A DNA stretch of 64,000 bases from a virus: IMG/VR virus record IMGVR_UViG_3300045988_167643; one strand, 5' to 3'. Below the pieces are notes generated by a model, which saw nothing but the letters and a program-made list of their open reading frames with translations, had not been told where the DNA came from and ran no database searches. Positions 3,557 to 49,627 of the stretch are shown piece by piece (within the stretch, counting starts at the first letter, position 1; every line of letters starts with the position of its first letter). The position numbers and the translations under genes are program-made.

Positions 3557-3844
3557 ATGGCAGCAAGAACAAGACGAACAAAAGAAGAAGTGCTTAATTC
3601 AAAACTTACAAAAATTGATGAAGAAATTAAAAAATTAACTGAGAAGATTAATGTATTATCAGAACAGAAGAAAAATATTGATAAAGAACTTGCTATTTTA
3701 AAAGACCAGAAATCTAAAGCCGAACGTGCAGCCCAGCTTACAGCTCTTGCAGATCTTATGGATTCCAACGGTTACACGATTGATGAACTGAAGGAGCTTA
3801 TGTCCATGCCGAAACCAACGGTAGAAGTAGCTGATGAGGAATAG
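3557..3844 (+). CDS. small coiled-coil protein (transposon cargo)
   Basis: The ATG at 3557 lies 7 nt after TAGGAGGAAT. The N-terminus is basic (MAARTRRTKEE) and is followed by heptad-like K/E/L-rich sequence. The track start at 3506 (TTG) lacks an RBS. Confidence 0.6.
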   Translation: MAARTRRTKEEVLNSKLTKIDEEIKKLTEKINVLSEQKKNIDKELAILKDQKSKAERAAQLTALADLMDSNGYTIDELKELMSMPKPTVEVADEE

Positions 3845-30529: not shown

Positions 30530-30569
30530 GGATTTTATATATAGATTTGTTTGAAGGATGGGAGAGAAG

Positions 30570-34500: not shown

Positions 34501-37500
34501 TATATACCTTAGTAGATTTTTTTACCTTTTCAGTATTGTCATTTACGGTGTCTGTATTTTTCTTAACAGAAATTGTATTTTTATCGGTAATTGTGGAATT
34601 AGAGGGAGATGACTGATTACCTTTATTTAAACCAAAGCTATTGCCACCACCTTTTGGTGATCCGTCTAAGAATGCACTCATTCCACTATGAACCGTTCCA
34701 CCAGCAAGTGCTCTAGCATGTCCACCTCCAGACATGACACGTCCTGAATTTATAAGTTCAGATGTTTGTTTTGAATTAAAGATAATATCGCCCTTTTTTA
34801 AATTCTCAAAATGAGCACCACCAGGAATTACCATCCATTTTCCGTCACGTACAATTGACTCCGGACCATCAGGAAGCTCATTTACAAGAGCTTTTTCATT
34901 ACTTTGTAATGCTACGTTTCCATCTGCATGAGCAGGAGAGTAGTTAAGAACATTATAAGCTGTACCAGAAGCGTGTGCTACACGGAGCATAGTACCAGAA
35001 GCAAATCCACCACCAGTTCCACCAGAATTATTTTTAACATTTGTAGTTACATTTGCGGTGACATTAACTGAATGTGGTTTGTTTAATTCAGCTTGTATTG
35101 TGCTTACCATAGAAGAAATATTTGCACCAACATTGATATTCGCAGTCTTATTATTAATTTCTTCTACTGCTGCATTAGCCGCTGAAATTGCAGGTCCTTT
35201 ATTACCATCAATTTTCATTTCAGGCTTTTGATTTTCTGCGTATTTTTTAGCTTCATCAACACTTTTTTTGTATGGAGTATTATTCCCATCAATAGGTATA
35301 CTTGATTGTTCAGTTGCTTGTGATTGTAAATTCTTTGCACTGACTGAAACTGAAAGAGATGGGTTAGAAGATTGCAATTTAGAAACAGTGGAATTAATAA
35401 GACTTAAAGTCTGACGAGATGTATTGTCAAGATTTACACTAACTGTTATCTTTTGAGTATCCTTTGGAAGACCTGCAATTTTATCAAGAAATGCATTTGC
35501 ATCCTCTTCATTATCAATATTAAAATGATATGTTAACTGCTGAATACCATCATCAAAAGCACTTAAATCAAGTTTATTAATTGCATCTTGAATTCCTGCA
35601 TCATCTAGTCCTTGAATATCAAACTTCAGAGTCTTTTTAGTCTCATCATCAATGCTATCCAACTCTGCTTTTGCATCATTTACGGCTTTTTGAGCATCAG
35701 ATGTATCTAATCCAAGAGATTTCTGCTTATCTAACTCGTTAACAGCTGTTTGGTAATTTTGAATTGCCGTAATAGCATTTTGAAGATCTGCATTAACACT
35801 ATTTAACTGATCATCTGAAATATTCATTACAGCAGGAGCTTCTAACTCTTGTTTTCTTTCTATAAGAGTCTTTAAAATTGTTTCAGCAGCTGAAATTTTA
35901 TCTGTGTTGACATCAATATCAGAACTCTCTCTAAGACCTTGCAAATACTTTGAAAGATCAGATATTTCACTATCCAGATCATCCCCTGTTGCGGAAAGAT
36001 TTATTTCAACATCTGGTTCTATAGTGTCGATCTGTTCTTCCAACGAGGTAATATTACCATCAACATCAATAATAAGATGATAATCTTTTGCAAAAGAGTC
36101 TAATTGCTTTTGAAGCACTTCTTTTAACTGGACATCATCTGTATTATTGATATCATCTATCATTGTCTTGGCAACAGATTTAGCATAATCTGTCTGCTCT
36201 TTAGTATATTTACCTTTCTTATCAACAAGCTCATCCATGTTGGCATTTGCATTTTTGATCCGCTCTTCGAATTCTGCAATTTTCCTTTCAGATTCAGAGA
36301 GAGCAGTATCATAGTCCTCGGTGTTCGGATTTGCTTTTATCTGAGCAAGATGCATTTTTTCAGCTGCTAATTTACTATATAAGTCAGAAATTTTCTCCGT
36401 ACCGGCTTCTTCAGTTGTAAAGAAATCATTATAGAAACCATAGTCTTCAAGTTTTCCGAAAACAGACATAAGAGGTTCAAACCCAATTCCAAGTTTGTCT
36501 GCAGTTTCTTTAAGCTCCTCCATATTATTTCCAAGAGAATAAGTCCAGTTACCATTTTCTTGTTCGGCCAATCCAAGAGCCTGAAGATCATTAAGGAAAT
36601 TGATACATCCATCAGAACCTTCAGTAAAATATTTCTCGATCTTTGACATATTTTCTGCAAAATTTGCATAGTCATCTGATCCAGTAGGAGAGAACATTGC
36701 GGCTGTGGTCTTGAAATCATCCGTTCCAACCAAACCTTTTTCATATGCTTCTTTAGCAGTATTATACATGGAAAGCATATCATCATAGGTCGCTCCTCCA
36801 TTCTCAGTAGAAGAAGCATCTTTTGCAGCTTCATATTGTGGAGTTGGAATTTTTAAACCAGCAATTTTTTTATATGCTCCCTCAATGTCGTGAGCACCGG
36901 CAATTACATCATCGACATATTTTTGAAGAGCATCTGCGTTTGCATCTTCACCGGCATCTCGTAAAGCCTCTATAGCATCTGTAAACTGGTTAGTTACATC
37001 ACTGTCCATAGAATCCATCAGATCATCAATAGCAGAAGAGAGGTCTTCTGTATTTCCTGCATATTTTGCAAGATCTGGGAATTTATCCAGGAATGTCTTT
37101 CTTGTAGAACCAGTCATAAGACCGTTCTTTAGATCTTTTTGAGCTTGATAGAGTGACTGATATTTATCCTGATAATCTGTGAGCTGGGATTGGATTGTTT
37201 CATTATTAATAAAATCTGCTGTAGTTGGAAGAAAATTCTGAATTTCTTTTCCCCAATCGAATCCAGTAGAAGTGATATTTCCAATATTCTGTTCGACCGC
37301 TTTAAGCATTGCTTGGGCGCCTGTGTCAGATGTCATATAGCTTGAATAAGAATTGATAAATCCTTTTGCCATATTTTCTGCAACTGTCTGTGGCGCAGAG
37401 CTATAAGCATTTTTGAACAGTTTTTCTATTTCCTGCTTCGCTGTAGCAGCATCAATATCAGACAAATCAGCTTCTTTCAGAATGCTTCCTTTAAGAGCTT

Positions 37501-39685
37501 TAGCATATTCCATCTCTTCTTTAGAAGCACCAACCATCGCATCATCTATTTTTTTTATACTATCTGTTACTTTAGATACTTTGAGGTTTGAAATAGATTT
37601 CTGTAAATCGTCTGTACCAGAAGCTAGTTGTGGAAACTGTTGAATAAGGTCAGTGAGATCTGAATCTTTAAACTCGCCTGTTTTAAGCTTTGTAAGAGTA
37701 TCTGATAAAGAAGAAATATCTGACTGCAAAGAATCAATAGAAGATGAGATTTCATTATCAGAATCGCCAAGAATTGATGAGAGAGTAGGACCATCTGTGG
37801 ATTCTGCTACCGTTTTCTTATATCTTTCAATGGCAGAAACTAATCCATCTGTGCCTTTCTCAATATCAACTGAACCATTATCAATTAACTGTGCAGCAAT
37901 TGACAGATCGCCTGTCTGCATCTGGTCAATAAAATCACTGGCATTTGGAAAATCTGCATATGCTTCTTTAAGACGTTCTGCGTTATCTTCCATGTCCTCA
38001 ATAGATGAATCAATACCATAAGCATTCTTGAACCGCTCCTGGAGTTCTTTCTTTTCCTCTGTGTCATTTCCAAAAGCATCTTTAAATGCTTCATCAACTT
38101 GCGACCTGTATTCATCAATAGTTAATTTAGAAGGATCAATTTGTAGTGCTTTTGCAAGACTTTCTTGTACATCCGTACTAAACTGAGACATTGGCCCAAG
38201 AAATTCACCATACAGAAAATCAAGTACCTGTCCTTTATATTCACCATCAGGATCATTTAATGCAGTTAAATCAAGATTTGAAATATTAGCCAGAAATGCA
38301 CTCTGAAGACTATCATCAAGCTCATTAAATGATTTTGATGTCTGAAGATAATTTCCAAGTGATTGAGCCATGCTACGCCATTGATCTTCAATCATTAAGT
38401 CATAGGAATTAATTTCGCTCTGAAGTTGACTTCTCTGAGATTCCAATGTTAAATAATAGGATTCCATACCAGCTGTAATCTGTTCATTCATCCTATCTAT
38501 TTCTTGTTTTGACTTGTCAGCAAGACCTTCAGCATAGAAATTCCAGATGCTTCCGTCATCACCAGTATTCTCTTTGTATAATCCGTTCTCTTTTAGAACA
38601 TCAGTAATAACATTTTCTTTATCGCCATACAAATTCTGAACTTCAAAATTGTTACTTCCATATGTTAAAATACTACGTTTGTTCTCAGAAATATCAATAT
38701 CTAGTTGAGCTAGTTCATCACGTTTTTTCTGAATATCTTCCGCATATTGACTTGTCTGTGTAACAACACCATCATATGTTGCTTGTAGATTTTTCCCCAT
38801 ATCAACATTTGCAGAAGAAACTTGTGCCTCATATAAGTTACGAATACTATCAGCAGCCTTATCTGCATTGGAAGCAAGGTTTAATACAGCATTTCCCTGA
38901 CTATCGTAACCTGCTACCAGACCAGGAAACTGAGAGGCAAGCTTACTACTGAGATCAATATATTGCTGATACTCGTCTGTAGATAATGATACATTCTCGT
39001 TTGTATTCTGATTTACTCCCTTACGAAGCTCTACATATTTTTCGGCAACTTGATCGATTGCATCACCGGTATTTTTTATTTGTTCTGTCTGATCACCGAA
39101 TGAAGATCCAAGGTCCATGATGGACTGCTTACCTTCTTCGAAGCTTTTGAATGTGCTGTCAATAGAATCCTTTGCTTCCTGTCCAGCTTTGATGATATTT
39201 TCGCTACGATGTCTATAATCATCTATGGCTTCAAATACTTTGCCAATAGCCCAGGATGCAGCCATAGCTATTGCCATATTGCCAAGAGTTCCAACAAATG
39301 TCTTTGCGACATTACCTGCGGTTTTTAAAGCAGCGCCAAATTTTGTTGTACCTTGTATAACTGTTTGCTGAGATTGAGCAAAATTGGCTAAATTTTGAGA
39401 TCCTAATTCTGTATTAGAATTATATTCAATTAATTTATTATTGCCTTCATCTAACTCATTAGCCCATGTTGAAGCCAGATTTTTATATTCATCACTTGAT
39501 AAATCAGCTTCTTTTGGAATATCGTTAATTAATCTTTTAAAATATTCTTGCTCATTATTGGTTGGATTATAATTTTTAACAACATCTTGCTTCTTTGTAA
39601 AAAAGTCTTTAATACTTTCCCAAAATTCAGATAAATTCTTTCCATTATTAAATGTACCCTCAGTTTTATCGTAGTTAAAAATCAA
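31577..39685 (-). CDS. tape-measure protein, distal 2702-aa segment (no credible own start)
   Basis: The frame opens only 5 codons upstream. The sole start candidate is TTG with no SD (AAATAGATTATTTCAATTTG). It contains a post-core hydrophobic segment (FGAALKTAGNVAKTFVGTLGNMAIAMAASWAIG), kilobases of coiled coil, and two ...NE(L/N)...GPE/GME-type motifs (ALVNELPDGPESIV; RVNENGMESVL). Confidence 0.85.
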   Translation of the reverse strand: MIFNYDKTEGTFNNGKNLSEFWESIKDFFTKKQDVVKNYNPTNNEQEYFKRLINDIPKEADLSSDEYKNLASTWANELDEGNNKLIEYNSNTELGSQNLANFAQSQQTVIQGTTKFGAALKTAGNVAKTFVGTLGNMAIAMAASWAIGKVFEAIDDYRHRSENIIKAGQEAKDSIDSTFKSFEEGKQSIMDLGSSFGDQTEQIKNTGDAIDQVAEKYVELRKGVNQNTNENVSLSTDEYQQYIDLSSKLASQFPGLVAGYDSQGNAVLNLASNADKAADSIRNLYEAQVSSANVDMGKNLQATYDGVVTQTSQYAEDIQKKRDELAQLDIDISENKRSILTYGSNNFEVQNLYGDKENVITDVLKENGLYKENTGDDGSIWNFYAEGLADKSKQEIDRMNEQITAGMESYYLTLESQRSQLQSEINSYDLMIEDQWRSMAQSLGNYLQTSKSFNELDDSLQSAFLANISNLDLTALNDPDGEYKGQVLDFLYGEFLGPMSQFSTDVQESLAKALQIDPSKLTIDEYRSQVDEAFKDAFGNDTEEKKELQERFKNAYGIDSSIEDMEDNAERLKEAYADFPNASDFIDQMQTGDLSIAAQLIDNGSVDIEKGTDGLVSAIERYKKTVAESTDGPTLSSILGDSDNEISSSIDSLQSDISSLSDTLTKLKTGEFKDSDLTDLIQQFPQLASGTDDLQKSISNLKVSKVTDSIKKIDDAMVGASKEEMEYAKALKGSILKEADLSDIDAATAKQEIEKLFKNAYSSAPQTVAENMAKGFINSYSSYMTSDTGAQAMLKAVEQNIGNITSTGFDWGKEIQNFLPTTADFINNETIQSQLTDYQDKYQSLYQAQKDLKNGLMTGSTRKTFLDKFPDLAKYAGNTEDLSSAIDDLMDSMDSDVTNQFTDAIEALRDAGEDANADALQKYVDDVIAGAHDIEGAYKKIAGLKIPTPQYEAAKDASSTENGGATYDDMLSMYNTAKEAYEKGLVGTDDFKTTAAMFSPTGSDDYANFAENMSKIEKYFTEGSDGCINFLNDLQALGLAEQENGNWTYSLGNNMEELKETADKLGIGFEPLMSVFGKLEDYGFYNDFFTTEEAGTEKISDLYSKLAAEKMHLAQIKANPNTEDYDTALSESERKIAEFEERIKNANANMDELVDKKGKYTKEQTDYAKSVAKTMIDDINNTDDVQLKEVLQKQLDSFAKDYHLIIDVDGNITSLEEQIDTIEPDVEINLSATGDDLDSEISDLSKYLQGLRESSDIDVNTDKISAAETILKTLIERKQELEAPAVMNISDDQLNSVNADLQNAITAIQNYQTAVNELDKQKSLGLDTSDAQKAVNDAKAELDSIDDETKKTLKFDIQGLDDAGIQDAINKLDLSAFDDGIQQLTYHFNIDNEEDANAFLDKIAGLPKDTQKITVSVNLDNTSRQTLSLINSTVSKLQSSNPSLSVSVSAKNLQSQATEQSSIPIDGNNTPYKKSVDEAKKYAENQKPEMKIDGNKGPAISAANAAVEEINNKTANINVGANISSMVSTIQAELNKPHSVNVTANVTTNVKNNSGGTGGGFASGTMLRVAHASGTAYNVLNYSPAHADGNVALQSNEKALVNELPDGPESIVRDGKWMVIPGGAHFENLKKGDIIFNSKQTSELINSGRVMSGGGHARALAGGTVHSGMSAFLDGSPKGGGNSFGLNKGNQSSPSNSTITDKNTISVKKNTDTVNDNTEKVKKSTKVYNWVETRIKHWSDQVQKIADKITDYIKKSLKTSLLKQQIRKMNYEIGSNQKGAKTYMKKANSIANEYTYYNSDGEEIKTNVPKKYQKLVQKGAYRIEDMDTSTDQGKALAEAIDQYKTYYDKAQDCKQAVVDLKKEQMELFEQWANMPTETAEQKLERLQNGFNGLNATQSRLSAVQTGGSTQKAIADAATASYESAQVVTEKAQSNLDTATAKADKATTAVNRKKKALLKSKGLTNEQKKAIKSGKTIDTSKITNKTTKKRAEEYNSAVKNKKKADSKKKTAQTKFNTANKNSSSLKTDAETAIAGYQEGNELSYMDSLTDQNVTQTKQAADINNKAWEETKKNLNAQEKAKKQADDKVSKKAKAIKKKFGSKLSDNQKKKLAAGKEINVDKIKDKSLKKALTAYNKYVTTAAETEQKLNIVTDAESTAAANAAESQTEAAKATVEAIQSKFDNAKTYYEGLLGYQEKYNEMEEANIDLYNAHGNYERSSDYEIKISNTESLRNIAQDKVDELEKRLQEGVDNGTIVEGSQEWINMKSEIIEAKKAVTDYDTSIENLKQQQIGVYYEEQFDRAIEKIDQFKDRLDTLNEIISDDMKVDKNTGLLTELGATSVMLNRNQFSANQKEIQKLLEKENDVKKRYANGEDMSSEFGEKTYDEYIKDIQSKYNSLISSNSSLQNDMLSLVKNQAQAELDALNKVISKRKEALSAKKDYYDYDKTLKDKTKDIQILERQAAALQGSTNAEDKARLAKIQEQLSDAREDLSDTMTDHAFSMQSDALDKLSSDMSDDFDKWSNDISSNVEKMSKAINEAVSNSALSNAQVLNNLSTILKNVGLTDEQVSSTLSGLTGYASGTDYVPKSGMYRVNENGMESVLSRKYGTLTFLNQGDKIFTADFTKRLIDNAGIATQSSQPQFGEMYKELMNAITNTNNQSYEHSTVYNIVVNEATDANAVGDIVVKKIDAYEKKRVRDFKSLR
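39664..39678. repeat. 15-nt inverted-repeat arm (TTTTATCGTAGTTAA) inside first codons of distal TMP segment
   Basis: It is the perfect reverse complement of 47220..47234. The RNA duplex is extendable to 17 bp with one G-U. Confidence 0.9.
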
Positions 39686-39747: not shown

Positions 39748-40275
39748 ATGAAGATTTATTGCTGTCGTAATTGTATGGAGAAAAACAGAAGCAAGATTAA
39801 AAGCGACAAAGATTATTTTAACTCATTACTTAAATATAAAACCTTTGAAGCAGAAAAAGAATATTTTGTAGGATTTGGACTAGAAAACAAAGTTAAAGAC
39901 GGTAAATGTATATTTTGCAACTCTCCAGTAGAACTTTTAAATATTGAGGATGGTGAATTGGCAAAAATATCACACTTTGGATCTCCAAATCCAGATTATG
40001 TTCTTGCTATGAATAAACTTAAAGGCGATGATATTATTTCATTTACTTCAAAATATAATGAATTAATTGAGATTCAAAATCAAAGAAAAGCAATGAATTT
40101 AGCGCAACAACAGTCCGAGCAACAAAATATAAACCAAGTACGTTGTCCTAAATGTGGATCTACCCAGATCACCACAGGACAGAGAGGATACAGTTTATTC
40201 TCTGGCTTTTTAGGTAGCAGCAAGACCGTTAATCGTTGTGCGGCTTGTGGACATACTTGGAAGCCTGGAAGGTGA
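39748..40275 (+). CDS. double zinc-ribbon protein (Zn-ribbon cassette copy 1 in frame)
   Basis: RBS GGAGGGTGATTATG. The N-terminus has CCRNC...CIFC. The C-terminus is [40 protein letters not shown]. Confidence 0.75.
40135..40275 (+). repeat. 141-nt Zn-ribbon cassette, copy 1 (in frame)
   Basis: It has the same length and the same [13 protein letters not shown]...NRCAxCG pattern as 41186..41326, 43280..43420 and 44153..44293. Confidence 0.9.
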
Positions 40276-40485
40276 CTATAAATAGTTCTTTCGATCATCA
40301 AGAATATCAAACAGTTCTTGAATGTTTTTTTCAAATTCTATAAAGCTTAGATACTTTTGATGATTGAATATTCTATAGTATGCTTTTTGGATTTTAAATT
40401 TTATATTGCGAATTGCCATTTTTGCATCCAAATAAAAAACATTTACTCTTAATTTTAGAAGTAATAAAGTTTTATTTTGTTTCAT
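40276..40485 (-). CDS. small protein, family C (~69 aa), divergent partner of HExxH gene
   Basis: RBS GAAAGGA. It shares K(K/A)YY(R/K)IF(N/D)xxKY...EK(D/N)(I/M)Q(E/D)...D(D/E)R with 42104..42316 and 42344..42550. Confidence 0.65.
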   Translation of the reverse strand: MKQNKTLLLLKLRVNVFYLDAKMAIRNIKFKIQKAYYRIFNHQKYLSFIEFEKNIQELFDILDDRKNYL

Positions 40486-40518
40486 ATAAATAAAATCCTT
40501 TCGTATAAGTAAATAAAT

Positions 40519-41202
40519 ATGAATAAAGAATATATAGAAAATTTATTTAAAGAATACAATAATAATTATTTTAAAATACCAGAAATACAGCAATATATCG
40601 AAATACAAGATAATTATGTAGCTGGTAAATTTAATAGTGTAGATTTATACAATCAAATATATACATTAGAAATAAGTAATAATTTAAATGAGTCTGATGG
40701 AAGCAAAGCAATATTATTCCATGAATTTACTCATGTATATGATTCGTTACAATTTCTAAAATATCCATTTGAAGATTACAAAAAATTAATGTATGTATAT
40801 TCGGAAGTACATGCTTCTGAAGTAGAAATGGATGTGTATTTAAAAATATCAAACTTTCATTATGAAAAATATATGCAATTACAATTAAGAGACCTAATAG
40901 AAAGCTTTATTTTGCCAGATGGTCCTATTGTCAAAGGACAGCTAGGATTTAATGAAAGACTTCTATATTATTACATTGGTTATCTTGTATCATTAAATAA
41001 TCATAATATTAAGTATGAATATAAATATGATTATATTAATGAAGATTTTCAAAATCTGTTTATGGAAATTACAGATTACTTTATTCAAAACAATACATAT
41101 AATTATGATATCTTATTAACTTACTATGATAGATTGAGTAAACTTGTAAAAGATACATTAATAAAACATCAAAAAAAATACAAATCAAGTTCGTTGCCCT
41201 AA
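40519..41202 (+). CDS. HExxH metallopeptidase-like protein, copy 1
   Basis: Contains [12 protein letters not shown] (HExxH) and [11 protein letters not shown]. It is roughly half-identical by eye to 42580..43266. It ends 17 nt into the +1-frame Zn-ribbon cassette. Confidence 0.65.
41171..41178 (+). repeat. A8 homopolymer at HExxH/Zn-ribbon junction
   Basis: The sequence reads CATC-AAAAAAAA-TAC. Loss of one A fuses the HExxH ORF to the Zn-ribbon (…[16 protein letters not shown]…). Confidence 0.9.
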
Positions 41203-41326
41203 ATGCGGTTCCACACAAATCACCACAGGTCAACGTGGATACTCATTATTCTCTGGTTTCCTTGGCTCAAATAAGACAGTCAACAGATGTGCGAATTGCG
41301 GATATTCTTGGAAACCTGGAAAATAA
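41186..41326 (+). other. Zn-ribbon cassette copy 2, +1 frame relative to upstream ORF, no own start codon
   Basis: It encodes [46 protein letters not shown]. Against copy 1, 22 codons differ synonymously and 5 non-synonymously. Its frame opens at 41165 with no ATG, GTG or TTG. Confidence 0.8.
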
Positions 41327-41338
41327 GGAGAGTATAAT

Positions 41339-41890
41339 ATGAGTATTATACTGGCTGCTATTTCAAAAAATAATGATATTGCTGTATGCTCCGATGGAAG
41401 AGCAACTGATAGTAATGGAAAAGTTGTAGGAGAGTATGAGCAAAAAATATATAAAATTAATAAGAAATGTATAATTGGTGGGACTGGAACTGCTGCTAAA
41501 TATCTAAAATTAAAAGATTATGTTAAAGATAATTTTTCATCAGACCAATACAATGTGAATCAAATCCACGACTCATGCATTAAGTATTTAGAAAAAAATA
41601 AATCTGACGAATCAGATGTACATATTCTTATTACTGGGTATGATGAAGAATGTAATCCACACTTGTATGTAATATCTGTATCCAGTACTATTTCATCTCG
41701 CGATTACAATGATATAAAAAGAACTATATTAGGCGATGTATTTTGCAATTATATACTTAATGAAACCGAAGATGACATCAATAAAATTTTAGATTCCATG
41801 GAAGAATGCATTATTAATAGAGCAATGTTTCATTTTTTAATTAACAAAAATGTTAGTAAATTGCATCTTTTGGCAAAGGATGTTCGATGA
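41339..41890 (+). CDS. HslV/CodW-like Ntn-hydrolase homologue, copy 2
   Basis: RBS AAGGAGAG. The N-terminus MSIILAAISKNNDIAVCSDGRATDSNGKVVGEYEQKIYKINKKCIIGGTGTA follows the HslV pattern. It is a paralogue of 30570..31112. Confidence 0.55.
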   Translation: MSIILAAISKNNDIAVCSDGRATDSNGKVVGEYEQKIYKINKKCIIGGTGTAAKYLKLKDYVKDNFSSDQYNVNQIHDSCIKYLEKNKSDESDVHILITGYDEECNPHLYVISVSSTISSRDYNDIKRTILGDVFCNYILNETEDDINKILDSMEECIINRAMFHFLINKNVSKLHLLAKDVR

Positions 41891-42053
41891 GTCTTTTTTC
41901 AGGAACAAAAAATGATTCAATAGTTTCTTTTACTACAATTGGTTTAAGTGGAATATATTTATTACAAGTGACTGATTCTTGTCCATCGTTATCAGATACT
42001 GATATTTTGTGCGAATCAATAAATATGTCACAATCAAAAATTTTAGCATGCAT
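41853..42053 (-). CDS. small protein, family B, convergent and overlapping with Ntn-hydrolase gene
   Basis: The start was refined to MHAKIFDCDIFIDSHK (RBS AGAAGGT). It overlaps 41339..41890 by 38 nt. Its 5' 53 nt are about 92% identical to 44883..44935. Confidence 0.6.
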   Translation of the reverse strand: MHAKIFDCDIFIDSHKISVSDNDGQESVTCNKYIPLKPIVVKETIESFFVPEKRLIEHPLPKDAIY

Positions 42054-42103
42054 TGTCATACCTTCTTTCTATATATTGTAGAATAAGTGGAACAAGTAAA
42101 TAA

Positions 42104-42316
42104 CTATAATCTATTCATACGTTCATCGTATTCATTAAATATTTCTTTGATGTCTTTTTCGAATGCACAAAGTTTTTCGTATTTGGAATAATTGAAAATT
42201 TTATAGTATGCCTTTTTTACCTGTAAAATGAAATTTTTCTTTTTCATATTTAAAGAAAGTAATAATGCGTCTATTTTTAAGAGTATTAATGAATGCTGTT
42301 TTATTTGTTTTTTCAT
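42104..42316 (-). CDS. small protein, family C paralogue
   Basis: The start was refined to MKKQIKQ (RBS AAAGGA). It carries the family C motif KKAYYKIFNYSKY...EKDIKEIF...DER. Confidence 0.6.
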   Translation of the reverse strand: MKKQIKQHSLILLKIDALLLSLNMKKKNFILQVKKAYYKIFNYSKYEKLCAFEKDIKEIFNEYDERMNRL

Positions 42317-42343
42317 AGAACATCCTTTCATAAGAAAAGTAAT

Positions 42344-42550
42344 TTACACCCATTTCATTCTGTCGTCAATAGCATCCAGGACATCTTGCATATCTTTTTC
42401 TATCTGCAGGAGGTCCTGGTACTTTTGATTATCAAAAATGCGATAATACTTTTTTTGAATTGCAAATTTTATATCTAATTTTAGATTTTTTAATTTTATG
42501 AACAGTATATCACGTTTTAATCTAATAATTAGCATTTTGTTTTTTATCAT
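42344..42550 (-). CDS. small protein, family C paralogue, divergent partner of HExxH gene
   Basis: RBS GAAAGGAATTATTATG. Only 29 nt separate it from the divergent 42580 start. Confidence 0.65.
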   Translation of the reverse strand: MIKNKMLIIRLKRDILFIKLKNLKLDIKFAIQKKYYRIFDNQKYQDLLQIEKDMQDVLDAIDDRMKWV

Positions 42551-42579
42551 AATAATTCCTTTCTATTGCAGGAGATAAA

Positions 42580-43266
42580 ATGGACAAAGAGTATCTTGAT
42601 AAAATATTTAAGGAATATAATGAGTTATATTATGAAATTCCAGAAATACAAGAATATATTGAAGTTGACAAAGGAGATTGTGCAGCCGCACAATTCAATA
42701 CATTGGAATTGTATAATCAAAAATATATACTAAAAGTCAACAAGCAATTAGATAAATCAAAAATATACAAAGGAATTTTCTTTCACGAGTTCACACATGT
42801 ATATGATTCTACTCAGTTATTAAATTATCCGCTTGAAAATTTTATTAAATTAATGTACATATATTCTGAAGTTCACGCTTCAGAAGTTGAAATGGATATA
42901 CATTTAAAAATAGAAAATTTCTCATATAAAAAATATGTAGATAAAGGAATAGTAAATTTAACTGAGAGTTTTATATTACCAAATAATCCTATTTTAAAAG
43001 GTGAGGTATATTGTGACGAAAGACTTTTATATTATTGTATTGGATATTTGACATCACTTAAAAAGCATAATATCGAATATGTTTATAGTTATAAGTATGT
43101 ACCAGATGTGTTTCGTTCATTATTTATAGAGATAACGGAATATTTTTTGTCAACAACAAAATATAATTATAATGTATTGCTTAATTATCAAATTAAATTA
43201 CATGATTTAGTCAAGACTACAATAAAGGAACATATAGAAAAATATAATAAACCTAATACAAATTAA
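42580..43266 (+). CDS. HExxH metallopeptidase-like protein, copy 2
   Basis: RBS GCAGGAGATAAAATG. Contains [12 protein letters not shown] and [11 protein letters not shown]. Confidence 0.65.
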   Translation: MDKEYLDKIFKEYNELYYEIPEIQEYIEVDKGDCAAAQFNTLELYNQKYILKVNKQLDKSKIYKGIFFHEFTHVYDSTQLLNYPLENFIKLMYIYSEVHASEVEMDIHLKIENFSYKKYVDKGIVNLTESFILPNNPILKGEVYCDERLLYYCIGYLTSLKKHNIEYVYSYKYVPDVFRSLFIEITEYFLSTTKYNYNVLLNYQIKLHDLVKTTIKEHIEKYNKPNTN

Positions 43267-43279
43267 TACAAAAACCAAT

Positions 43280-43420
43280 ACTGTTCACTGTCCTCGCTGC
43301 GGTAGCACACAGATCACTACAGGGCAGAGAGGTTATTCCTTTTTAACTGGTTTCTTAGGTTCCAATAAAGCTGTTAATAGATGCGCAAAATGTGGACATA
43401 CTTTGGAACCGAGAGGGTAA
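43280..43420 (+). other. Zn-ribbon cassette copy 3, +1 frame relative to upstream ORF, no own start codon
   Basis: It encodes [46 protein letters not shown]. Its frame is open from 43238 without a start codon. The junction contains the tandem AATACAAA-tt-AATACAAA. Confidence 0.75.
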
Positions 43421-43421
43421 T

Positions 43422-43691
43422 TTATTTAATACCATGTTCTTCCAAAAACTCATCAGCTATTTGACTAGAAACTTGTTTTATAATTTGAGTAAGATTACCA
43501 TGAACGTCAATTTCCGGCATCTTACCAGTTGTTTCGAATTTAATAATGTCATCAATTGACATATTCTTAAAATGATTTCGCACTAATGTAAATGTGGTTT
43601 CAATATCACCTTCATCAGTACAATTATTTTCGTATAACAATTTAATAATTTTTGTTGCAATATTTTCTGTCTCAGAAATTGACCACAACAT
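43422..43691 (-). CDS. hypothetical 89-aa acidic protein, divergent partner of 43723..44154
   Basis: RBS AGAAAGGTCGTG. Its start lies 31 nt from the divergent gene's start. Confidence 0.6.
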   Translation of the reverse strand: MLWSISETENIATKIIKLLYENNCTDEGDIETTFTLVRNHFKNMSIDDIIKFETTGKMPEIDVHGNLTQIIKQVSSQIADEFLEEHGIK

Positions 43692-43722
43692 ATTTTCACG
43701 ACCTTTCTATGGAGGATTGAAT

Positions 43723-44154
43723 ATGATATTAAACTATGATTGTTTTAGAGATGTACTCTTATATATTGAAGAACAAGATAATATGAAGCTTAATGGAGAT
43801 TTCAAGCGGATTATGTTAAAAGATATAAAGGATCACTTTTCAGGCAAATACACTGAAGAGGATGTACAATATTGTGTGAAAAACTTATTTGACGGAAGAT
43901 TCTTAGAAGGATTGTATTCTATAGATGATAACTATAAATATGAAAACTGTAAAATTTATGATGTTACATTCGAAGGACATAAATTAGCAGAATCAATTAG
44001 ACCTGACTCTATATGGAGGAAGAGTAAAGCTAAATTAAAATCTGTAGGTATTTCTTCTATAAATATGATCTCAGCAGTATGTGTAGAAGTTGCTAAAGTA
44101 GCTGTTACTGATCCTAAATTTATTACCGATATTGCCAATGGAATATTTAAATAA
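43723..44154 (+). CDS. DUF2513-like (winged-helix-like) protein
   Basis: RBS GGAGGATTGAATATG. The N-terminus MILNYDCFRDVLLYIEEQ...F resembles the remembered DUF2513 family. The track start at 43594 lies inside the divergent gene. Confidence 0.5.
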   Translation: MILNYDCFRDVLLYIEEQDNMKLNGDFKRIMLKDIKDHFSGKYTEEDVQYCVKNLFDGRFLEGLYSIDDNYKYENCKIYDVTFEGHKLAESIRPDSIWRKSKAKLKSVGISSINMISAVCVEVAKVAVTDPKFITDIANGIFK

Positions 44155-44293
44155 AGTTCACTGTCCTCGCTGTGGCTCAACGCAAATTACCACAGGTCAA
44201 ACCTTGCAAAGAGCATTGTTTAGCTTAATGTATAATCAGATTACTGTCAATCGATGCGCAAATTGTGGGTGCACTTGGAGACAAGGAATATAA
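44138..44293 (+). CDS. Zn-ribbon cassette copy 4 as possible 51-aa stand-alone ORF (+1 frame, overlaps upstream stop)
   Basis: An ATG at 44138 lies in the cassette frame but has no SD. It encodes [51 protein letters not shown]. The central loop has diverged. Confidence 0.45.
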   Translation: MEYLNKVHCPRCGSTQITTGQTLQRALFSLMYNQITVNRCANCGCTWRQGI

Positions 44294-44607: not shown

Positions 44608-44808
44608 GTGAACTCAAATTTCGATTCAAAAGAATCATTCCTTTCTTATAAGTTAAATATTTTTAAAGAATTGTATAATGATGAATGTGAAAGAAGAAAC
44701 ATTGCTTCACAAAAAATTTCAAGAATTATTCCATTAATTGTGGCAATGTTTGGTGGTGACACCAATATTTTTCAAAAGCTTTTTCTGGCAACAGATAATC
44801 CTCTATGA
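44608..44808 (+). CDS. 66-aa ORF, possibly a truncated N-terminal fragment
   Basis: A GTG lies 8 nt after AGGAGG. It ends inside the convergent gene 44726..44935, in the position the Ntn-hydrolase gene occupies in the paralogous module. Confidence 0.35.
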   Translation: MNSNFDSKESFLSYKLNIFKELYNDECERRNIASQKISRIIPLIVAMFGGDTNIFQKLFLATDNPL

Positions 44809-44935
44809 CTTCCTTGACAAAGAAAGTAGGCAAGGGAGTATTAAAAGATTTTTCACTAGATCCACCACGAGAATCGTTTATTGATATTTTGTGTGAATCA
44901 ATAAATATGTCGCAATCAAAAATTTTTACATGCAT
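44726..44935 (-). CDS. small protein, family B paralogue
   Basis: The start was refined to MHVKIFDCDIFIDSHK (RBS GAAGGTGAAG). Confidence 0.6.
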   Translation of the reverse strand: MHVKIFDCDIFIDSHKISINDSRGGSSEKSFNTPLPTFFVKEVIEDYLLPEKAFEKYWCHHQTLPQLME

Positions 44936-44983
44936 AAAAATCTTCACCTTCTTTTTTTATTTAATTAATAGACCAAGAGAGTA

Positions 44984-45331
44984 TTAGTGCTCTTGGTCTG
45001 ATTCTTCATGCTTGGTCCATGCTAATGTATAAGTTTTTAACCAAAAGTAATCTTTACCGAAATCACCATCAGACCGATATATATCAAATTCATTTATATT
45101 ATAAATACCTAATGTCTCATACATGGCATCACGGTATGTCTTATAAGATCCAAGAACCTTATTATCATCTTTTCTTATTACTAGATAACAATCTCCGTAT
45201 TTTTCAAATAATTCTTTCTCGTGGTCTGTAAAATAGCAGTGGGCTTTACCATCTCGATCTGTTGACATATTAGTATAATTAAAGAAATCTTTATCTTCAA
45301 ATATAACAGTTCCTCTTTGTATTAATTTCAT
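44984..45331 (-). CDS. small protein, family A paralogue
   Basis: RBS AAAGGAGT. FEKYGDCYLVIRKDDNKVLGSYKTYRDAMYETL aligns with the family A members. Confidence 0.65.
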   Translation of the reverse strand: MKLIQRGTVIFEDKDFFNYTNMSTDRDGKAHCYFTDHEKELFEKYGDCYLVIRKDDNKVLGSYKTYRDAMYETLGIYNINEFDIYRSDGDFGKDYFWLKTYTLAWTKHEESDQEH

Positions 45332-45375
45332 TTAATAATACTCCTTTTTAATCATAATAATAGACCAGGAGAGTG

Positions 45376-45846
45376 TTAATTCTCCTGGTCTAAATTATCA
45401 TATTCATTTAAGAAATTTGCTGTTCCAAAAGATGGGATTCTAAATGAAAAACTTGTTTTTCCATTTAAATTTGATACTGCAAAATCACCTTTTGAAATAA
45501 TATCCATACCAATAATAATATCAAAAACATCATGTTTTTCAATTTTTAATACTCGCAAGTTATTAAAAACAAAATCGTCTCTAAACATTAAATCAATTGA
45601 ATAAATATTTGTTAATTTTGACTCACGATGACCTCCAGTATAGAAATTTGATTTTCCAGTTGAAGTAAGATTATATTTTTCCACTATATTGCTTGTTATA
45701 CATGAGACAGAAGCACCTGTGTCCCAAATACAAATAAAGCGATTTTTATCAATTAAATCATCTTTCTCTTTTCCTACATAAACATAGGAAGTAAGTTGAT
45801 TCATTATCTTATTTGAACTATATGTAAGAACTCGTATTTTATCCAT
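45376..45846 (-). CDS. retropepsin-like aspartic protease, copy 2
   Basis: Contains IWDTGASVSCIT, IIGMDIISKGDFAVSN and FSFRIPS. Its start lies 4 nt after the upstream family A gene's stop. Confidence 0.75.
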   Translation of the reverse strand: MDKIRVLTYSSNKIMNQLTSYVYVGKEKDDLIDKNRFICIWDTGASVSCITSNIVEKYNLTSTGKSNFYTGGHRESKLTNIYSIDLMFRDDFVFNNLRVLKIEKHDVFDIIIGMDIISKGDFAVSNLNGKTSFSFRIPSFGTANFLNEYDNLDQEN

Positions 45847-45849
45847 ATC

Positions 45850-46140
45850 TTATTCACTTATAGAAATCCATTTATATTCTGGTATGCGAACATATTTTCT
45901 ATTAAAAACACCATCACAATGATATATATTAAATTCACCTACATCATAATAGAAAAGTGTTTCTCTTAATGCTTCTCTATATGTTTTATATGATCCAATG
46001 ATAATATTATCTAATTTTCTAATAGACAGATAACATTCTCCATATTTTTTATATAATTCTTCATGATGATAATAAAACCAATCTGTAGGATGATTTGGAA
46101 TTTCTACAATTTCCCCTTCATAATAATGTATTTTTCCCAT
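45850..46140 (-). CDS. small protein, family A paralogue
   Basis: The start was refined to MGKIHYYEG after AAGAGGTG. Contains YKKYGECYLSIRKLDNIIIGSYKTYREALRETL. Confidence 0.65.
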   Translation of the reverse strand: MGKIHYYEGEIVEIPNHPTDWFYYHHEELYKKYGECYLSIRKLDNIIIGSYKTYREALRETLFYYDVGEFNIYHCDGVFNRKYVRIPEYKWISISE

Positions 46141-46187
46141 ATTAAATTTCACCTCTTATCATATCATATAATGGATTAATTTCAATC

Positions 46188-46224
46188 TATATAAATAAAA
46201 GCACCACGTTTGCAAGCCGTGGTG
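46188..46224 (-). terminator. rho-independent terminator ending the ORF-poor RNA region
   Basis: On the minus strand, CACCACG-gcttgcaaa-CGTGGTG is followed by CTTTTATTTAT. Confidence 0.7.
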
Positions 46225-46681
46225 AGTGTGTGCAGTTAGTGCATTTCAGGTAGTAGGAGAGTAGTAACCTCACGGTTCTATCCATACTATTCGATCCATC
46301 ATGCTACCCAGGCTTTCCCTGGTTGGACTGTATATTGTACTATATGTTGTAACGCCACACATAATACGCCTTGTCAGCCTCTCGCACGTTAACTGTAAAA
46401 CTACACTTTTACATGAAAACACATATGTTCTGGATTTACAAAAATGGACAATTATACTACAATCGAAGTCAGATAAACTTGTGATCACAGTTCTACATTG
46501 TGATTCGTTGCACGACAGTATATCTGACAATCGTCATGTAGTATTGAATTAATGGTACGCAATTTGTACCAGAAATGAGATTATCTAAAATGAAGCATTC
46601 TAAATATTATATTCATTTCTATGGGATTCTCCCAACATCAAATCTCTTTCTTGATACTTTCGTACAGGAAGGAGGTGAGAT

Positions 46682-46855
46682 ATGGAAGATGTATTTCTAT
46701 TCGTTTTAACTCTTGTAGGATTATTAATCCTATGGTCGTTAATCCGCAGAATACCATCTAAGAACATGAAAAACTTTCACATCCATTTTGGATTTTTGAA
46801 AGGATTTGACATGTCTGGAGAATTCTATAAGGATGACACCAAAAATAATAAATAG
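46682..46855 (+). CDS. 57-aa hydrophobic-N-terminus peptide (type-I-toxin-like)
   Basis: Strong RBS GGAAGGAGGTGAGATATG. It encodes MEDVFLFVLTLVGLLILWSLIRRIPSK..., a TM helix followed by a charged tail. Its own terminator lies downstream. It is below the ORF-track cutoff. Confidence 0.55.
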   Translation: MEDVFLFVLTLVGLLILWSLIRRIPSKNMKNFHIHFGFLKGFDMSGEFYKDDTKNNK

Positions 46856-46892
46856 TTTAGTTCATATTTTTGTAATCTCCTTTTGTCATTTA

Positions 46893-46945
46893 AGAGAGTG
46901 GAGAGTTGTTAGCGCAACTTTCTGCTCTCTATTTCTTTCTTTCTT
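46893..46945 (+). terminator. rho-independent terminator of the small peptide gene
   Basis: AGAGAG-tg-GAGAGTTG-ttagcg-CAACTTTC-tg-CTCTCT is followed by ATTTCTTTCTTTCTT. Confidence 0.7.
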
Positions 46946-47219
46946 CCTGTTATAATTGCGTTTTATTCGTGAATTTATCATCCACTTTTGTAAATTTAAA
47001 CATATGTGTTTGCTAACGTGTCGGAACTACCATCTTCAATATATCCCTTTCATTCATTTTCAGAACTAAGGTACCACAGTGATGTGGATTACGGCTTCCT
47101 CCGATATTCGGCTTTATAGCTCTAAGGCTAAAGGTCTGTCAATAGGTGTCGAATCACCATCTTGAACAAGTTCTATACTAACTGTCGCGATTATGACAGC
47201 AGCATATCAAATGGGCATC

Positions 47220-47234
47220 TTAACTACGATAAAA
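47220..47234. repeat. 15-nt inverted-repeat arm (TTAACTACGATAAAA) at island right end
   Basis: It is the reverse complement of 39664..39678. It supplies the codons FYRS* that terminate the proximal TMP segment. Confidence 0.9.
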
Positions 47235-48053
47235 TTTTGAATTGAAACTAGCTTTATGGTTTATGTTAAGCTGTTTACCCAGACCTGCTTGTGAAAGTTT
47301 AAATCCTGCGAATCCTCCAATTGCTGTTGAGAGCAGTGGAAGTTTATCCAGGATCTGAGTTACGATGTTAAGAAAGGCGGTTGCTGTATCTATTACGCCT
47401 TTAAACATATCTGAGTTGATAGTTACTGTTGCAAGCTCTTGGAGCTGTGTTTGGAGCTTTGTGATATGAGCTTCTAACGAAGATAAATACGTCTCATTTT
47501 CACGATCTGCCGAGCCTTTCGCATTTTTTGATGACTCGATTGCTTCCCTTAAAATATCAGGTGACTGCAATATACTAGCAGCTGTATTTGCGCGGTTTTT
47601 GCCGGCAATTGTTTCAAGCAAAAGATTTACATTGTTACTTTTGGTCTTTTTATCGGTTTCTTCGATCTCATTATAGATATCTGCTATATCCTGTAATACA
47701 CTTGCCGTTGAACGGTAGTTCCCGTTATTATCAAGAATATCTATACCTTTAAAACCATTAGAAGCGACTTTTGTTGCGCTCATAATTACGTCTCTAAGCT
47801 TAGAAACAGTTGTTACAACACCATCTGTCTCTTCGCCAAGTTCTTGCAATTGCTGAACGGCAACGCTTGTTCCTGTTAGACGGAGAGCAATCGTTCTCAT
47901 TGCGGCACCAACGGATTCTGGGTCCTGCACAACCTGGTTGCCTGCCGTAATTAATCCTATACTTTCGTCTATATTATTACCTGCTGTTTTAAGAGCAGAT
48001 GCTGATCTTTGTAATGCTGATGCTAACCCATCGGTGGAGATGGAAAAATTATT
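47220..48053 (-). CDS. tape-measure protein, middle segment (exon 2 of intron-split TP901-type core)
   Basis: It begins NNFSISTDGLASALQRSASALKTAGNNIDESIGLITAGNQVVQDPESVGAAMRTIALRLTG, the hallmark TP901-family core block as remembered from Firmicutes phage TMPs. The track codons MVSRACLESNSL upstream belong to the intron 3' end. Confidence 0.85.
   Translation of the reverse strand, partial: NNFSISTDGLASALQRSASALKTAGNNIDESIGLITAGNQVVQDPESVGAAMRTIALRLTGTSVAVQQLQELGEETDGVVTTVSKLRDVIMSATKVASNGFKGIDILDNNGNYRSTASVLQDIADIYNEIEETDKKTKSNNVNLLLETIAGKNRANTAASILQSPDILREAIESSKNAKGSADRENETYLSSLEAHITKLQTQLQELATVTINSDMFKGVIDTATAFLNIVTQILDKLPLLSTAIGGFAGFKLSQAGLGKQLNINHKASFNSKFYRS
47240..47247. repeat. 8-bp direct repeat AATTGAAA (island right junction)
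   Basis: Identical to 39685..39692 and in the same codon phase. Confidence 0.85.
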
Positions 48054-49627
48054 CAAACTGTTACTTTCGAGACAAGCTCTACTAACCACACAAAATTAGT
48101 ATGGCGCATAGGCATTTCTACCTATGTCTCACGCTTTATATGAATTGGGATTATAACGTGACGATTATACTTAAAAGTATAAAAGAGCCTTTCGGCTGTT
48201 CGGACTAGATCTTCATCCTATAAAATAGGAGAGTAGCGAAACTCTATTTGTTTATTATCCAAATAGAGTATTATGGTCTCTACGGATATATGTAATTAAT
48301 TATTTTATAATATATGTATATTCTTTTCTGTTTAAATCTTGATATGGGGTAATTATATTAGAATTTAAAGAAAGACTAGATTCTGAAATACTATAATTAA
48401 AAGAATGATAATTATTTAATACACCATTACAATTTATATATTCTTGAATTAATTTTTTACATAATTCTTCGTTTTTATTTATATCAGTTTCCCACAAATA
48501 TAAAATTTTTATATCATATTTATTGGTAATATATGATTTCTTTTGCTTATCTTTTATAATTGTTCTGTCTTGTATTGAATTCAAAGTATATTTATTTTCA
48601 TTGTATCTTATTGGGTTACCATGCCAATAATCGCCCATAACCTCTATTATTAAATTAAAATCATTTAAATAATTATCAGCAGCATAATATTCAAATATTT
48701 TCTCGCGTTCATAATTAATCTTTAATTCATCTAATATAGAATTTATTTTTAACTGAATTTTAGAATTTCTTTTATTTGAACGAGCGCTATTTTGGGCAAT
48801 TCTAAGACGTATTTTTTCTTTTTGTTCTGGCGTAAATTTTTTATTAAACATGGGGGATTTTTCTTGAATATAATGTTTAGATTTGAATTCATAATAACAT
48901 TGTCTGGAGCAATAATTGAAATTTTCTCCAAATGAATTGACTTTATTATAATTAGATGGAATAATTGCAAGAGGTTTACCACAATTAGTGCAAAACGTAT
49001 TTATTCTATTATAAAATTGACTTTCCTTACCATGGTCTAATTTATTTGGTTTATCTTTATGATAACATTCATTAGAACAATACGAATGTTTATTTACTAA
49101 ATAAACACTTGGAAAATCTTCAATTTCTTGTCCACAATATTCACAATTGGTTTTTACTAATATTTTTCTACTATGATTCCCTAATTGCTGAACCATTTTA
49201 CAAATATCTTTTAGCGATCTATTCTTATACATACTTTGCAAGGTGTTCAAATAAGGATCGTCTGTTGTTAATAAAAAAGATAATGCTGTTTTTACATCTT
49301 CCTTAGTCCATCCATCAATATTAGGAACAATATTTTTATGACGTTTTAACCAATCACAATAGGCACACGTTCCATTATTTCCATTTTCTTTTAAATTTCT
49401 AATTCTAATAAATCTCTTTTCTAAATTTCTTCCACACACATCACAATGGACTATATGATTCAATGGAATACTATCATATTTTTCTTTACTTCGCATAAAA
49501 CCTCTTTAAATTAATTACATATCTTTCCACGGTCTTGGCTTTCCCATAAGCTATTAACCGTTATAGCTACTTACAGGGAATATAAAAATTCCCCACATGT
49601 TACCATGTGTTTAGGCATAATCATTTC
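48054..49627 (-). mobile_element. group I intron (1574 nt) in the tape-measure gene
   Basis: P1 pairs exon UAGGU (49632-49628) with intron GCCUA (49616-49612), with a U-G wobble at the splice site. P10 pairs intron AUUAU (49621-49617) with 3'-exon AUAAU (48052-48048). The intron ends in G (48054). An S-like element GAAGAUCUAGUCCGAAC lies at 48201-48217. The spliced junction reads VNQVG|NNFSIS. Confidence 0.8.
48300..49496 (-). CDS. intron-encoded homing endonuclease, Zn-finger N-terminal half + PD-(D/E)XK (Vsr/EDxHD-like) C-terminal domain
   Basis: It has multiple CxxC pairs (CDVCGR, CAYCDW, CEYCGQ, CTNCGK). The C-terminus has LIIEVMGDYWHGNP...D..KD...KILYLWE, a Vsr/DUF559-like pattern. It lies wholly within the intron. 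Confidence 0.7.
   Translation of the reverse strand: MRSKEKYDSIPLNHIVHCDVCGRNLEKRFIRIRNLKENGNNGTCAYCDWLKRHKNIVPNIDGWTKEDVKTALSFLLTTDDPYLNTLQSMYKNRSLKDICKMVQQLGNHSRKILVKTNCEYCGQEIEDFPSVYLVNKHSYCSNECYHKDKPNKLDHGKESQFYNRINTFCTNCGKPLAIIPSNYNKVNSFGENFNYCSRQCYYEFKSKHYIQEKSPMFNKKFTPEQKEKIRLRIAQNSARSNKRNSKIQLKINSILDELKINYEREKIFEYYAADNYLNDFNLIIEVMGDYWHGNPIRYNENKYTLNSIQDRTIIKDKQKKSYITNKYDIKILYLWETDINKNEELCKKLIQEYINCNGVLNNYHSFNYSISESSLSLNSNIITPYQDLNRKEYTYIIK

Follow-up and report, generated by a model that had tools for sequence, protein, structure and literature searches.

The 64,000-nucleotide (nt) stretch of DNA analysed here (the window; IMG/VR virus record IMGVR_UViG_3300045988_167643) is phage DNA with a guanine and cytosine (GC) content of 33% and giant tail genes on the minus strand. 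Between two pieces of its tape-measure gene lies a plus-strand accessory island of low GC. At one edge of this island a gene of 175 amino acids (aa), the CxxC-zinc-ribbon (CxxC-ZnR) gene, ends in a cassette encoding a zinc ribbon, and three further copies of the cassette follow other genes of the island, out of frame with them. We propose that these three orphan copies are probably displaced 3' ends of the CxxC-ZnR gene, pushed downstream by the insertion of accessory modules, and not sites of frameshifting. The four copies and the three modules (M1 to M3) that alternate with them are as follows (ORF, open reading frame).

39748..40275, plus strand: CxxC-ZnR gene, 175 aa, the only gene using the cassette in frame (ORF)
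40121..40275, plus strand: copy 1, in frame, the functional 3' end, including about five linker codons (repeat search, alignment)
40276..41171: module M1, with a 69-aa gene (40276-40485, minus strand) and HExxH-1 (40519-41202, plus strand) (ORFs)
40519-41202, plus strand: HExxH-1 of M1 (HEFTH motif)
41171..41178, plus strand: run of eight adenines (A8) at the HExxH-1/copy-2 junction, the only long homopolymer at any junction
41172..41326, plus strand: copy 2, orphan, +1 frame, no start codon (repeat search, near-identity to in-frame alleles)
41327..43265: module M2, with an HslV/proteasome-like gene, three small genes and HExxH-2 (ORFs, Pfam)
41339-41890, plus strand: HslV/proteasome-like gene of M2 (Pfam Proteasome, E-value 7.5e-12)
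41853-42059, 42104-42331 and 42344-42550, minus strand: small genes of M2 (ORFs)
42580-43266, plus strand: HExxH-2 of M2 (HEFTH motif)
43266..43420, plus strand: copy 3, orphan, +1 frame, no start codon, conserved Trp changed to Leu (repeat search, translation)
43421..44138: module M3, with an 89-aa gene (43422-43691, minus strand) and a DUF2513 gene (43723-44154, plus strand) (Pfam DUF2513, E-value 1.8e-15)
44139..44293, plus strand: copy 4, orphan, +1 frame, divergent allele class (TLQRALFSLMYNQIT), a class found in frame elsewhere

Four copies of a zinc-ribbon cassette

A repeat search returned a single family with four ungapped direct copies of 150 nt, starting at 40121, 41172, 43266 and 44139. 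Copies 2, 3 and 4 are respectively 75, 64 and 60% identical to copy 1. The homology begins about 14 nt upstream of the 141-nt cassettes that a first-pass annotation of the sequence had placed at 40135, 41186, 43280 and 44153. Each of these 141-nt stretches encodes 46 residues and a stop, with the pattern CPxCGST...NRCAxCG and two CxxC pairs. A profile built from the cassettes matched all four copies with 99-117 bits, hence the repeat is not due to chance. Repeat search, translation and profile scores thus agree with the annotation in describing four direct zinc-ribbon cassettes of 47 codons.

Judged by its homologues, the cassette encodes the zinc ribbon with which the predicted proteins of a large conserved phage family end. 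The protein homologue search with the copy-1 protein gave 232 homologues, mostly of 172-182 aa, and the full-length ones were 33-93% identical to it. The zinc ribbon was C-terminal in 159 of 162 homologues. Members have about 175 aa and share an N-terminal CxxC...CxxC, a conserved NPDY..AM..LK helix, a polar linker and the C-terminal CPxCGST...NRCxxCG ribbon. No specific Pfam family was matched by the CxxC-ZnR protein, and its matches among the PHROGs (phrog_2546 and phrog_3845) were weak.

The reading frames are those of the first-pass annotation: copy 1 continues the CxxC protein, and copies 2, 3 and 4 lie in the +1 frame relative to the two HExxH ORFs (40519-41202 and 42580-43266) and the DUF2513 ORF (43723-44154). 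HExxH-1 ends at a TAA (41200-41202) 17 nt inside copy 2, the TAA before copy 3 (43264-43266) lies 14 nt ahead of the 141-nt cassette, and the one before copy 4 (44152-44154) overlaps the first codon of the cassette. Copies 2 and 3 lack a start codon of their own, as annotated: up to the first Cys, their open frames are free of ATG, GTG and TTG. Copy 4 could use an ATG at 44138 or a TTG at 44132, neither with a Shine-Dalgarno sequence, whereas the neighbouring genes have strong ones. Each orphan is preceded by a few codons homologous to the linker of the CxxC protein, in the frame of the cassette and without indels. In particular, the A8 run aligns base for base and without indel to CAACAAAAT in the linker of copy 1. 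A Shine-Dalgarno sequence and the next gene come directly 3' of copies 2 and 4. Matches in a promoter and terminator scan were at chance level and none was centred on the cassettes.

The upstream ORFs stop at a TAA that is reached when the A-rich linker, or CCT-AAA-TG, is read out of frame. The remaining non-zero frame is open through most of the cassette. A mundane bias to +1 would follow, because an ORF entering the cassette in the other frame would acquire a long nonsense tail.

Alleles and modules in related phages

The relatives that we compared are IMG/VR and metagenome contigs of 100-220 kb (in what follows, L labels denote related phage contigs or loci and P labels homologous proteins). 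Alleles of the cassette interchange between in-frame and orphan positions. Copy 2 matches the in-frame cassette of L012 without a difference over 124 nt (100% identity; L002, 97%; L001, 92%), and the nearest relatives of copy 1 are out-of-frame orphans of L001 and L002 (91% nt identity). The allele class of copy 4 occurs in frame at the end of the CxxC protein in P0101, P0028, P0039, P0069 and P0110; the in-frame cassette of L170 (P0101) is 90% identical to copy 4 over 161 nt, including the downstream TAAGGAGA flank. An HslV-like gene follows the in-frame cassette in L170, the same arrangement as after copy 2 in the window. This suggests that the two genes formed an ancestral operon. Copy 2 would be a displaced 3' end still ahead of its original downstream partner. 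Displaced sequence is longer in L005, where an open fragment of 84 codons behind a DUF2513 gene matches residues 96-175 of the CxxC protein (59% identity, E-value 2e-34).

The cassettes are more diverged than their surroundings, e.g., genomes with about 95% identity in the flanks have 74-79% in copy 3. Some orphans are chimeric: where the HExxH-1 junction is identical, the cassette behind it is constant for about 45 nt and then varies by allele.

The modules are present in some relatives and absent from others, with the breakpoints at the cassettes. M1 is found in L001, L002, L166, L168 and L169. These contigs lack M2, and a single cassette marks the joint where M1 meets M3 directly. L012, L018 and L008 have neither M1 nor M2: the CxxC gene is followed directly by M3, and its in-frame end occupies the position of copy 3. 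The same succession of CxxC gene and M3 is seen in the distant phages L023 and L067. In L003, L004 and L006 a sub-block containing HExxH-2 (42345-43302) comes directly after the CxxC gene, which there has another type of ribbon. The blocks are in a different order in L018, and L009 has another type of cassette behind the copy-4 junction. The junctions themselves recur: that of copy 2, including A8, is identical in six independent assemblies, and those of copies 3 and 4 are found in several IMG/VR contigs.

HExxH-1 and HExxH-2 are about 53-55% identical in aa sequence. The HExxH proteins of a short clade (226-228 aa) are never in frame with a cassette. Those of a long clade are in-frame fusions with the zinc ribbon (HExxH-ZnR, 297-318 aa); they form about 30 clusters, are 41-43% identical to HExxH-1 and are widespread. 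One such fusion of 304 aa (L009/L010, P0084, P0091) is itself widespread, with P0091 on 207 contigs. By eye, in the printed sequences, the long-clade cassette of L010 appears to have the same nucleotide sequence as the CxxC cassette of L011, with the EEEKNT linker included. The computed comparison of the L009 long form with L011 gave 166 matches in 210 positions, counting the cassette and 60 nt upstream of it; almost every mismatch lay in this flank. The HExxH-ZnR protein thus looks like a domain fusion that may have arisen by in-frame capture of a displaced gene end. We saw no in-frame fusion of DUF2513 with the zinc ribbon.

Frames and lesions of the orphan cassettes

The offset of the orphans varies among relatives. 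It is +1 in the window, L001, L006 and L037, and +2 in L003, L004, L049, L056 and L061. Frame 0 with an intervening stop is found in L022 and L015, and frame 0 as a fusion is the HExxH-ZnR long clade.

Many orphans carry lesions. Among distinct sequences, all 58 in-frame cassettes are intact, against 12 of the 25 short or orphan ones (Fisher p ~1e-8). Three of the six contigs with the identical A8 junction (L001, L002, L168) have a 1-nt insertion inside the cassette orthologous to copy 2. The copy-3 orphans of L003 and L004 are in the +2 frame and have TGA in place of TGG at the conserved Trp. The orphan of L005 has its first Cys changed to Tyr and a TAG upstream at the position of a Gln, while that of L006 (copy 3) has a Gly replaced by Trp and has lost its stop. 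Truncations at the 5' or 3' end affect the orphans of L015, L018, L022, L049, L056, L060, L061, L067 and L070. Homologous islands therefore do contain decaying cassettes, with internal frameshifts, premature stops, lost Cys and truncations, a state that the first-pass annotation had named as evidence against their translation.

The disabling stops of L003/L004 (around position 3830) and L005 (around 3700) fall exactly at conserved Trp (TGA) and Gln (TAG) codons. TGA and TAG are the two reassignments known in recoded phages. We rejected recoding of stop codons here: the giant structural ORFs of the window are uninterrupted in the standard code, and the adjacent DNA of L003 matches that of the window at 97% identity. 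We judged the match a coincidence.

Our recount of codons between copies 1 and 2 gave 19 identical, 22 synonymous and 5 non-synonymous, the last two exactly as annotated. Ratios of non-synonymous to synonymous substitution rates (dN/dS) were also computed with homologues. Copy 4 has a low dN/dS between the window and L018 (12 synonymous and 5 non-synonymous changes). The ratio is about 1 for copy 3 between L006 and L009, where the changes are clustered at one end. A low dN/dS between copies is not diagnostic, since the cassettes are mosaics of in-frame alleles and have diverged further than the DNA around them.

Probable displacement of the 3' end of the CxxC-ZnR gene

We think it likely, from these comparisons, that copies 2, 3 and 4 are former ends of the CxxC-ZnR gene displaced by module insertions rather than frameshift sites. 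The gene lies at the edge of a hypervariable island, and accessory modules would repeatedly have entered its 3' end by recombination. Each incoming block would have supplied a cassette, or recombined within one, such that the CxxC gene stayed intact. The earlier 3' end would have been pushed downstream, behind the new module, giving rise to copies 2, 3 and 4. Whatever ORF now lies upstream would run into the orphan out of frame and then stop. Orphan alleles may subsequently have been exchanged with in-frame alleles at the cassettes by homologous recombination or gene conversion, and the direct repeats would offer homology for further gain, loss, exchange and reshuffling of modules. A possible route is unequal crossover, or the Campbell-type excision and reinsertion (pop-out/pop-in) of circles. 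The order of events, the route of recombination and the untranslated state of copies 2, 3 and 4 in this phage are parts of the scheme that we infer.

This scheme accounts for the protein-level constraint that the orphans appear to be under, as other genomes have the same sequences as functional in-frame alleles. The synonymous excess would then reflect divergence among functional alleles in the phage population, and not selection on the orphans in place. The annotation had concluded that the cassettes are translated or were until very recently; only the second half of this stood, in that identical sequences form in-frame functional ends in sibling phages. It had also listed recombinational swapping, the suggestion closest to the data. 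What the comparison favours is not a constant 3' cassette passed among variable 5' modules, as had been suggested, but the displacement of the successive ends of one gene.

Some observations weigh against displacement. Copies 2, 3 and 4 are all intact, with four Cys each and no stop, which would have a chance of about 11% if orphans were unconstrained, as estimated from the comparison set. Copy 4 has an ATG and a low dN/dS relative to L018, and may thus be translated in situ. Copy 3 had no close in-frame counterpart (at least 84% nt identity) among the loci fetched. Finally, we saw neither a recombinase among the module proteins nor circular intermediates.

An extension of the scheme is possible, though we advance it tentatively: the orphans might be a device for mobility. 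A module carrying the 3' end of its recipient gene could enter any phage with a CxxC-ZnR gene by homologous recombination of the Campbell type and leave that gene undamaged. If this is true, part of the orphan joins the functional copy after each transfer, and a module can spread only as long as its untranslated cassette still codes for a functional zinc ribbon. Purifying selection at the protein level would then act on untranslated sequence through the viability of recombinants. This would explain both the three intact orphans of the window and the in-frame captures represented by the HExxH-ZnR long clade.

Alternative explanations

The orphans could be translated alone as small zinc-ribbon proteins, copy 4 from the ATG at 44138 by termination coupling with the DUF2513 gene, and copies 2 and 3 by non-canonical starts or reinitiation. 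We regard this as unlikely, and independent translation as a weak possibility for copy 4 only. The cassettes do lie within presumably transcribed operons, with the next gene and its Shine-Dalgarno sequence directly after copies 2 and 4, and the open frame of copy 4 with its ATG is kept in the window, L001, L012, L018 and L009. This ATG is nevertheless within the DUF2513 coding sequence, hence its conservation is not independent evidence. Exchange with in-frame alleles of its class explains the low dN/dS of copy 4 relative to its L018 orthologue just as well. No orphan is preceded by a Shine-Dalgarno sequence such as the strong ones of the neighbouring genes, copies 2 and 3 lack any of the three usual start codons, and the orphans of relatives are often broken.

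It is also unlikely that the orphans are the decaying C-terminal domains of ancestral HExxH-ZnR and DUF2513-ZnR fusions, frameshifted in place, e.g., by expansion of A7 to A8. The long clade does comprise some 30 clusters of in-frame fusions that are 41-43% identical to HExxH-1, and deleting one A from A8 produces a clean HExxH-1/cassette fusion of 268 aa. Yet the A8 matches the CxxC linker base for base and is thus not an insertion. The orphans are near-identical to alleles of the CxxC gene rather than members of a separate HExxH-specific lineage, and the cassette of the long clade itself appears identical to a CxxC cassette (L010 and L011, by eye). The displaced body sequence of the CxxC gene in L005 also speaks against such decay. 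Given the 53-55% identity of HExxH-1 and HExxH-2, the cassettes trailing them are far better preserved than untranslated relics of that age would be. For the third orphan, the ancestral form should be a DUF2513-ZnR fusion, of which we saw no example in frame.

Very unlikely, in our view, is programmed +1 ribosomal frameshifting or transcriptional slippage that fuses the ribbon to a fraction of the HExxH and DUF2513 products. The first-pass annotation had proposed such mechanisms, or phase variation, on the strength of the common +1 offset of the three junctions in the window. The A8 run coincides with the copy-2 junction and is kept in six assemblies, and the HExxH-ZnR proteins found elsewhere imply that the fusion is viable. 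Against this, the three junctions share no shift-prone motif and have no upstream stimulator resembling GGAGG or a Shine-Dalgarno sequence. Copies 3 and 4 have no homopolymer ahead of their stops, where no A or T run exceeds A5, and searches of Rfam returned no frameshift element, intron or other RNA in the cassette region or in the whole window. The A8 run is unchanged in all six assemblies with this junction, i.e., it has no tract-length polymorphism, and in three of them the cassette behind it is frameshifted internally. Other orphans have lost the first Cys or are truncated. The offset is +2 or 0 in the seven relatives given above for these frames, and three equal offsets among non-zero frames have a chance of about 1 in 4, to which the bias to +1 must be added.

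That the offsets are sequencing or assembly errors in plain fusion genes is extremely improbable: one junction does lie in a homopolymer (A8), but identical junctions occur in independent assemblies from different projects, uninterrupted ORFs of 2702, 2423 and 1681 aa in the window indicate few indel errors, and copies 3 and 4 have no homopolymer able to restore the frame before the stop.

Island setting and neighbouring genes

The tape-measure gene is apparently split into three collinear minus-strand ORFs, which match successive parts of phrog_4211.

49571-51319, minus strand: first tape-measure piece (phrog_4211 positions 244-721)
47220-48089, minus strand: tape-measure piece B, 289 aa, right flank of the island (phrog_4211 positions 722-942; Pfam PhageMin_Tail)
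31577-39685, minus strand: tape-measure piece C, 2702 aa, left flank of the island (phrog_4211 positions 967-1556)

The island (39706 to about 47200) lies as a whole between the second and third of these pieces. Its GC content is 19-30%, and that of the tape-measure gene around it about 38-43%. Many distantly related phages have the CxxC-ZnR gene in the same gap of the tape-measure gene and on the opposite strand, often alone there. The divergent neighbourhood of tape-measure piece C and the CxxC gene is kept across many phages. Neither a near-identity DNA search nor a tblastn of the copy-1 protein gave a match among GenBank phages, and the lineage is known from metagenomes only. The zinc-ribbon domain recurs among assemblies of Lachnospiraceae, Oscillospiraceae and other Clostridia. 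These uncultivated gut-type phages probably infect Lachnospiraceae or other Clostridia.

Neither the HExxH proteins nor the small minus-strand genes could be assigned to a family by searches of the Pfam, PHROG, PADLOC and Protein Data Bank (PDB) profiles. Searches of Pfam, PHROG and PADLOC with all module proteins returned matches to DUF2513 and HslV/proteasome-like families only, and no recombinase or integrase. The HslV/proteasome-like gene of M2 has a paralogue at 30558-31112 (plus strand; Pfam Proteasome, E-value 1.6e-8; the M2 gene, at 41339-41890, is also on the plus strand and has an E-value of 7.5e-12). The paralogue is a lone plus-strand gene amid the minus-strand tail genes. The small minus-strand genes include two paralogous families without database match, one at 40276-40485, 42104-42331 and 42344-42550, and the other at 41853-42059 and 44726-44947. 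Genes of the first family (69, 75 and 68 aa) lie divergently ahead of each HExxH gene and may form a conserved two-gene module with it.

Further right, a retropepsin-like aspartyl protease gene (45376-45846, minus strand; Pfam Asp_protease_2, E-value 2e-7) is flanked by two paralogous minus-strand genes (44984-45331 and 45850-46152; 100 and 115 aa). Similar GC-rich hairpin repeats (44950-45009 and 45342-45401) follow these paralogues, one after each. The adjacent 1 kb or so (46194-47220) contains no convincing ORF, has a GC content above that of the island, and yet is 96-98% identical across relatives with differing neighbour modules.

The first two tape-measure pieces are parted by a 1.5-kb insert (48090-49570) with a Cys-rich ORF of 398 aa (48300-49496, minus strand). 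They are contiguous in L050 (VDKFNEVGNRFAISSGG...), and the profile junction is exact at positions 721/722. The insert looks like an intron or a free-standing mobile gene, although Rfam gave no intron there. We had suspected a homing endonuclease in the 398-aa ORF, which Pfam did not support: its matches were weak and to zinc fingers only.

Comparison with known systems

The hyperplastic regions of T4-type phages offer a close parallel. There, short conserved repeats termed PeSLs are reported to flank non-essential genes (Arbiol et al. 2010, PMC2839356; also PMC4122927). Insertions, deletions and replacements between close relatives break in these repeats, and recombination of neighbouring repeats was proposed to release circles able to reinsert elsewhere (PMC2839356). 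In the window too, conserved repeats flank variable modules and the gains and losses among relatives have their breakpoints in the repeats. PeSLs, however, are non-coding and made of a promoter and a terminator, whereas the repeat here is the coding 3' end of one gene (about 150 nt), of which one copy must stay in frame and functional, and the scan of the cassettes showed no promoter or terminator signal. No circles such as those proposed for PeSLs were seen here.

A second parallel is provided by integrative elements that target the 3' ends of tRNA, tmRNA and protein genes. They restore the end of the gene and leave the old end as a direct repeat, and their serial insertion gives rise to arrays of repeats. 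An intact target gene and a displaced 3' end as direct repeat are what we observe here. Unlike these elements, the modules have no integrase or recombinase, the crossovers vary along the cassette and beyond it, and a common identical core is lacking. General homologous and illegitimate recombination is therefore a better match than a site-specific process.

Known programmed frameshift sites include the +1 site of prfB, the -1 sites of dnaX and of phage tail chaperones, and poly-A tracts with transcriptional slippage. The junctions resemble them in having a downstream domain in another frame without a start codon and, in one case, an A8 run. They differ in that there is no conserved shift site, the offset varies, and the downstream frame is frequently disrupted in relatives. 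In the silent-cassette systems that act by gene conversion (pilE/pilS, vlsE), an expressed copy is accompanied, as in the window, by nearby partial copies without start, in the same orientation. Sequence is exchanged between expressed and silent copies here too, but the copies differ mostly by synonymous changes and their exchange would yield little protein diversity. Moreover, unrelated genes part the copies, and there is no sign of a dedicated conversion mechanism.

The locus gives a sequence-resolved example of how accessory genes may be stacked and shuffled in uncultivated gut-type phages. The recombination linker would be the coding 3' end of a resident gene, with four generations of it readable in a single genome. 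It also calls for caution, since offsets in the same direction and an excess of synonymous changes mimic programmed recoding and can arise without translation, by exchange with functional alleles. To judge from the HExxH-ZnR proteins, which carry the ribbon in frame, displaced ends may serve as raw material from which new domain fusions form. Relative to the shuffling at PeSLs and the relics of integrative elements, what is new is that the repeat is the coding end of a gene, and that neither a recombinase nor a fixed core is present.

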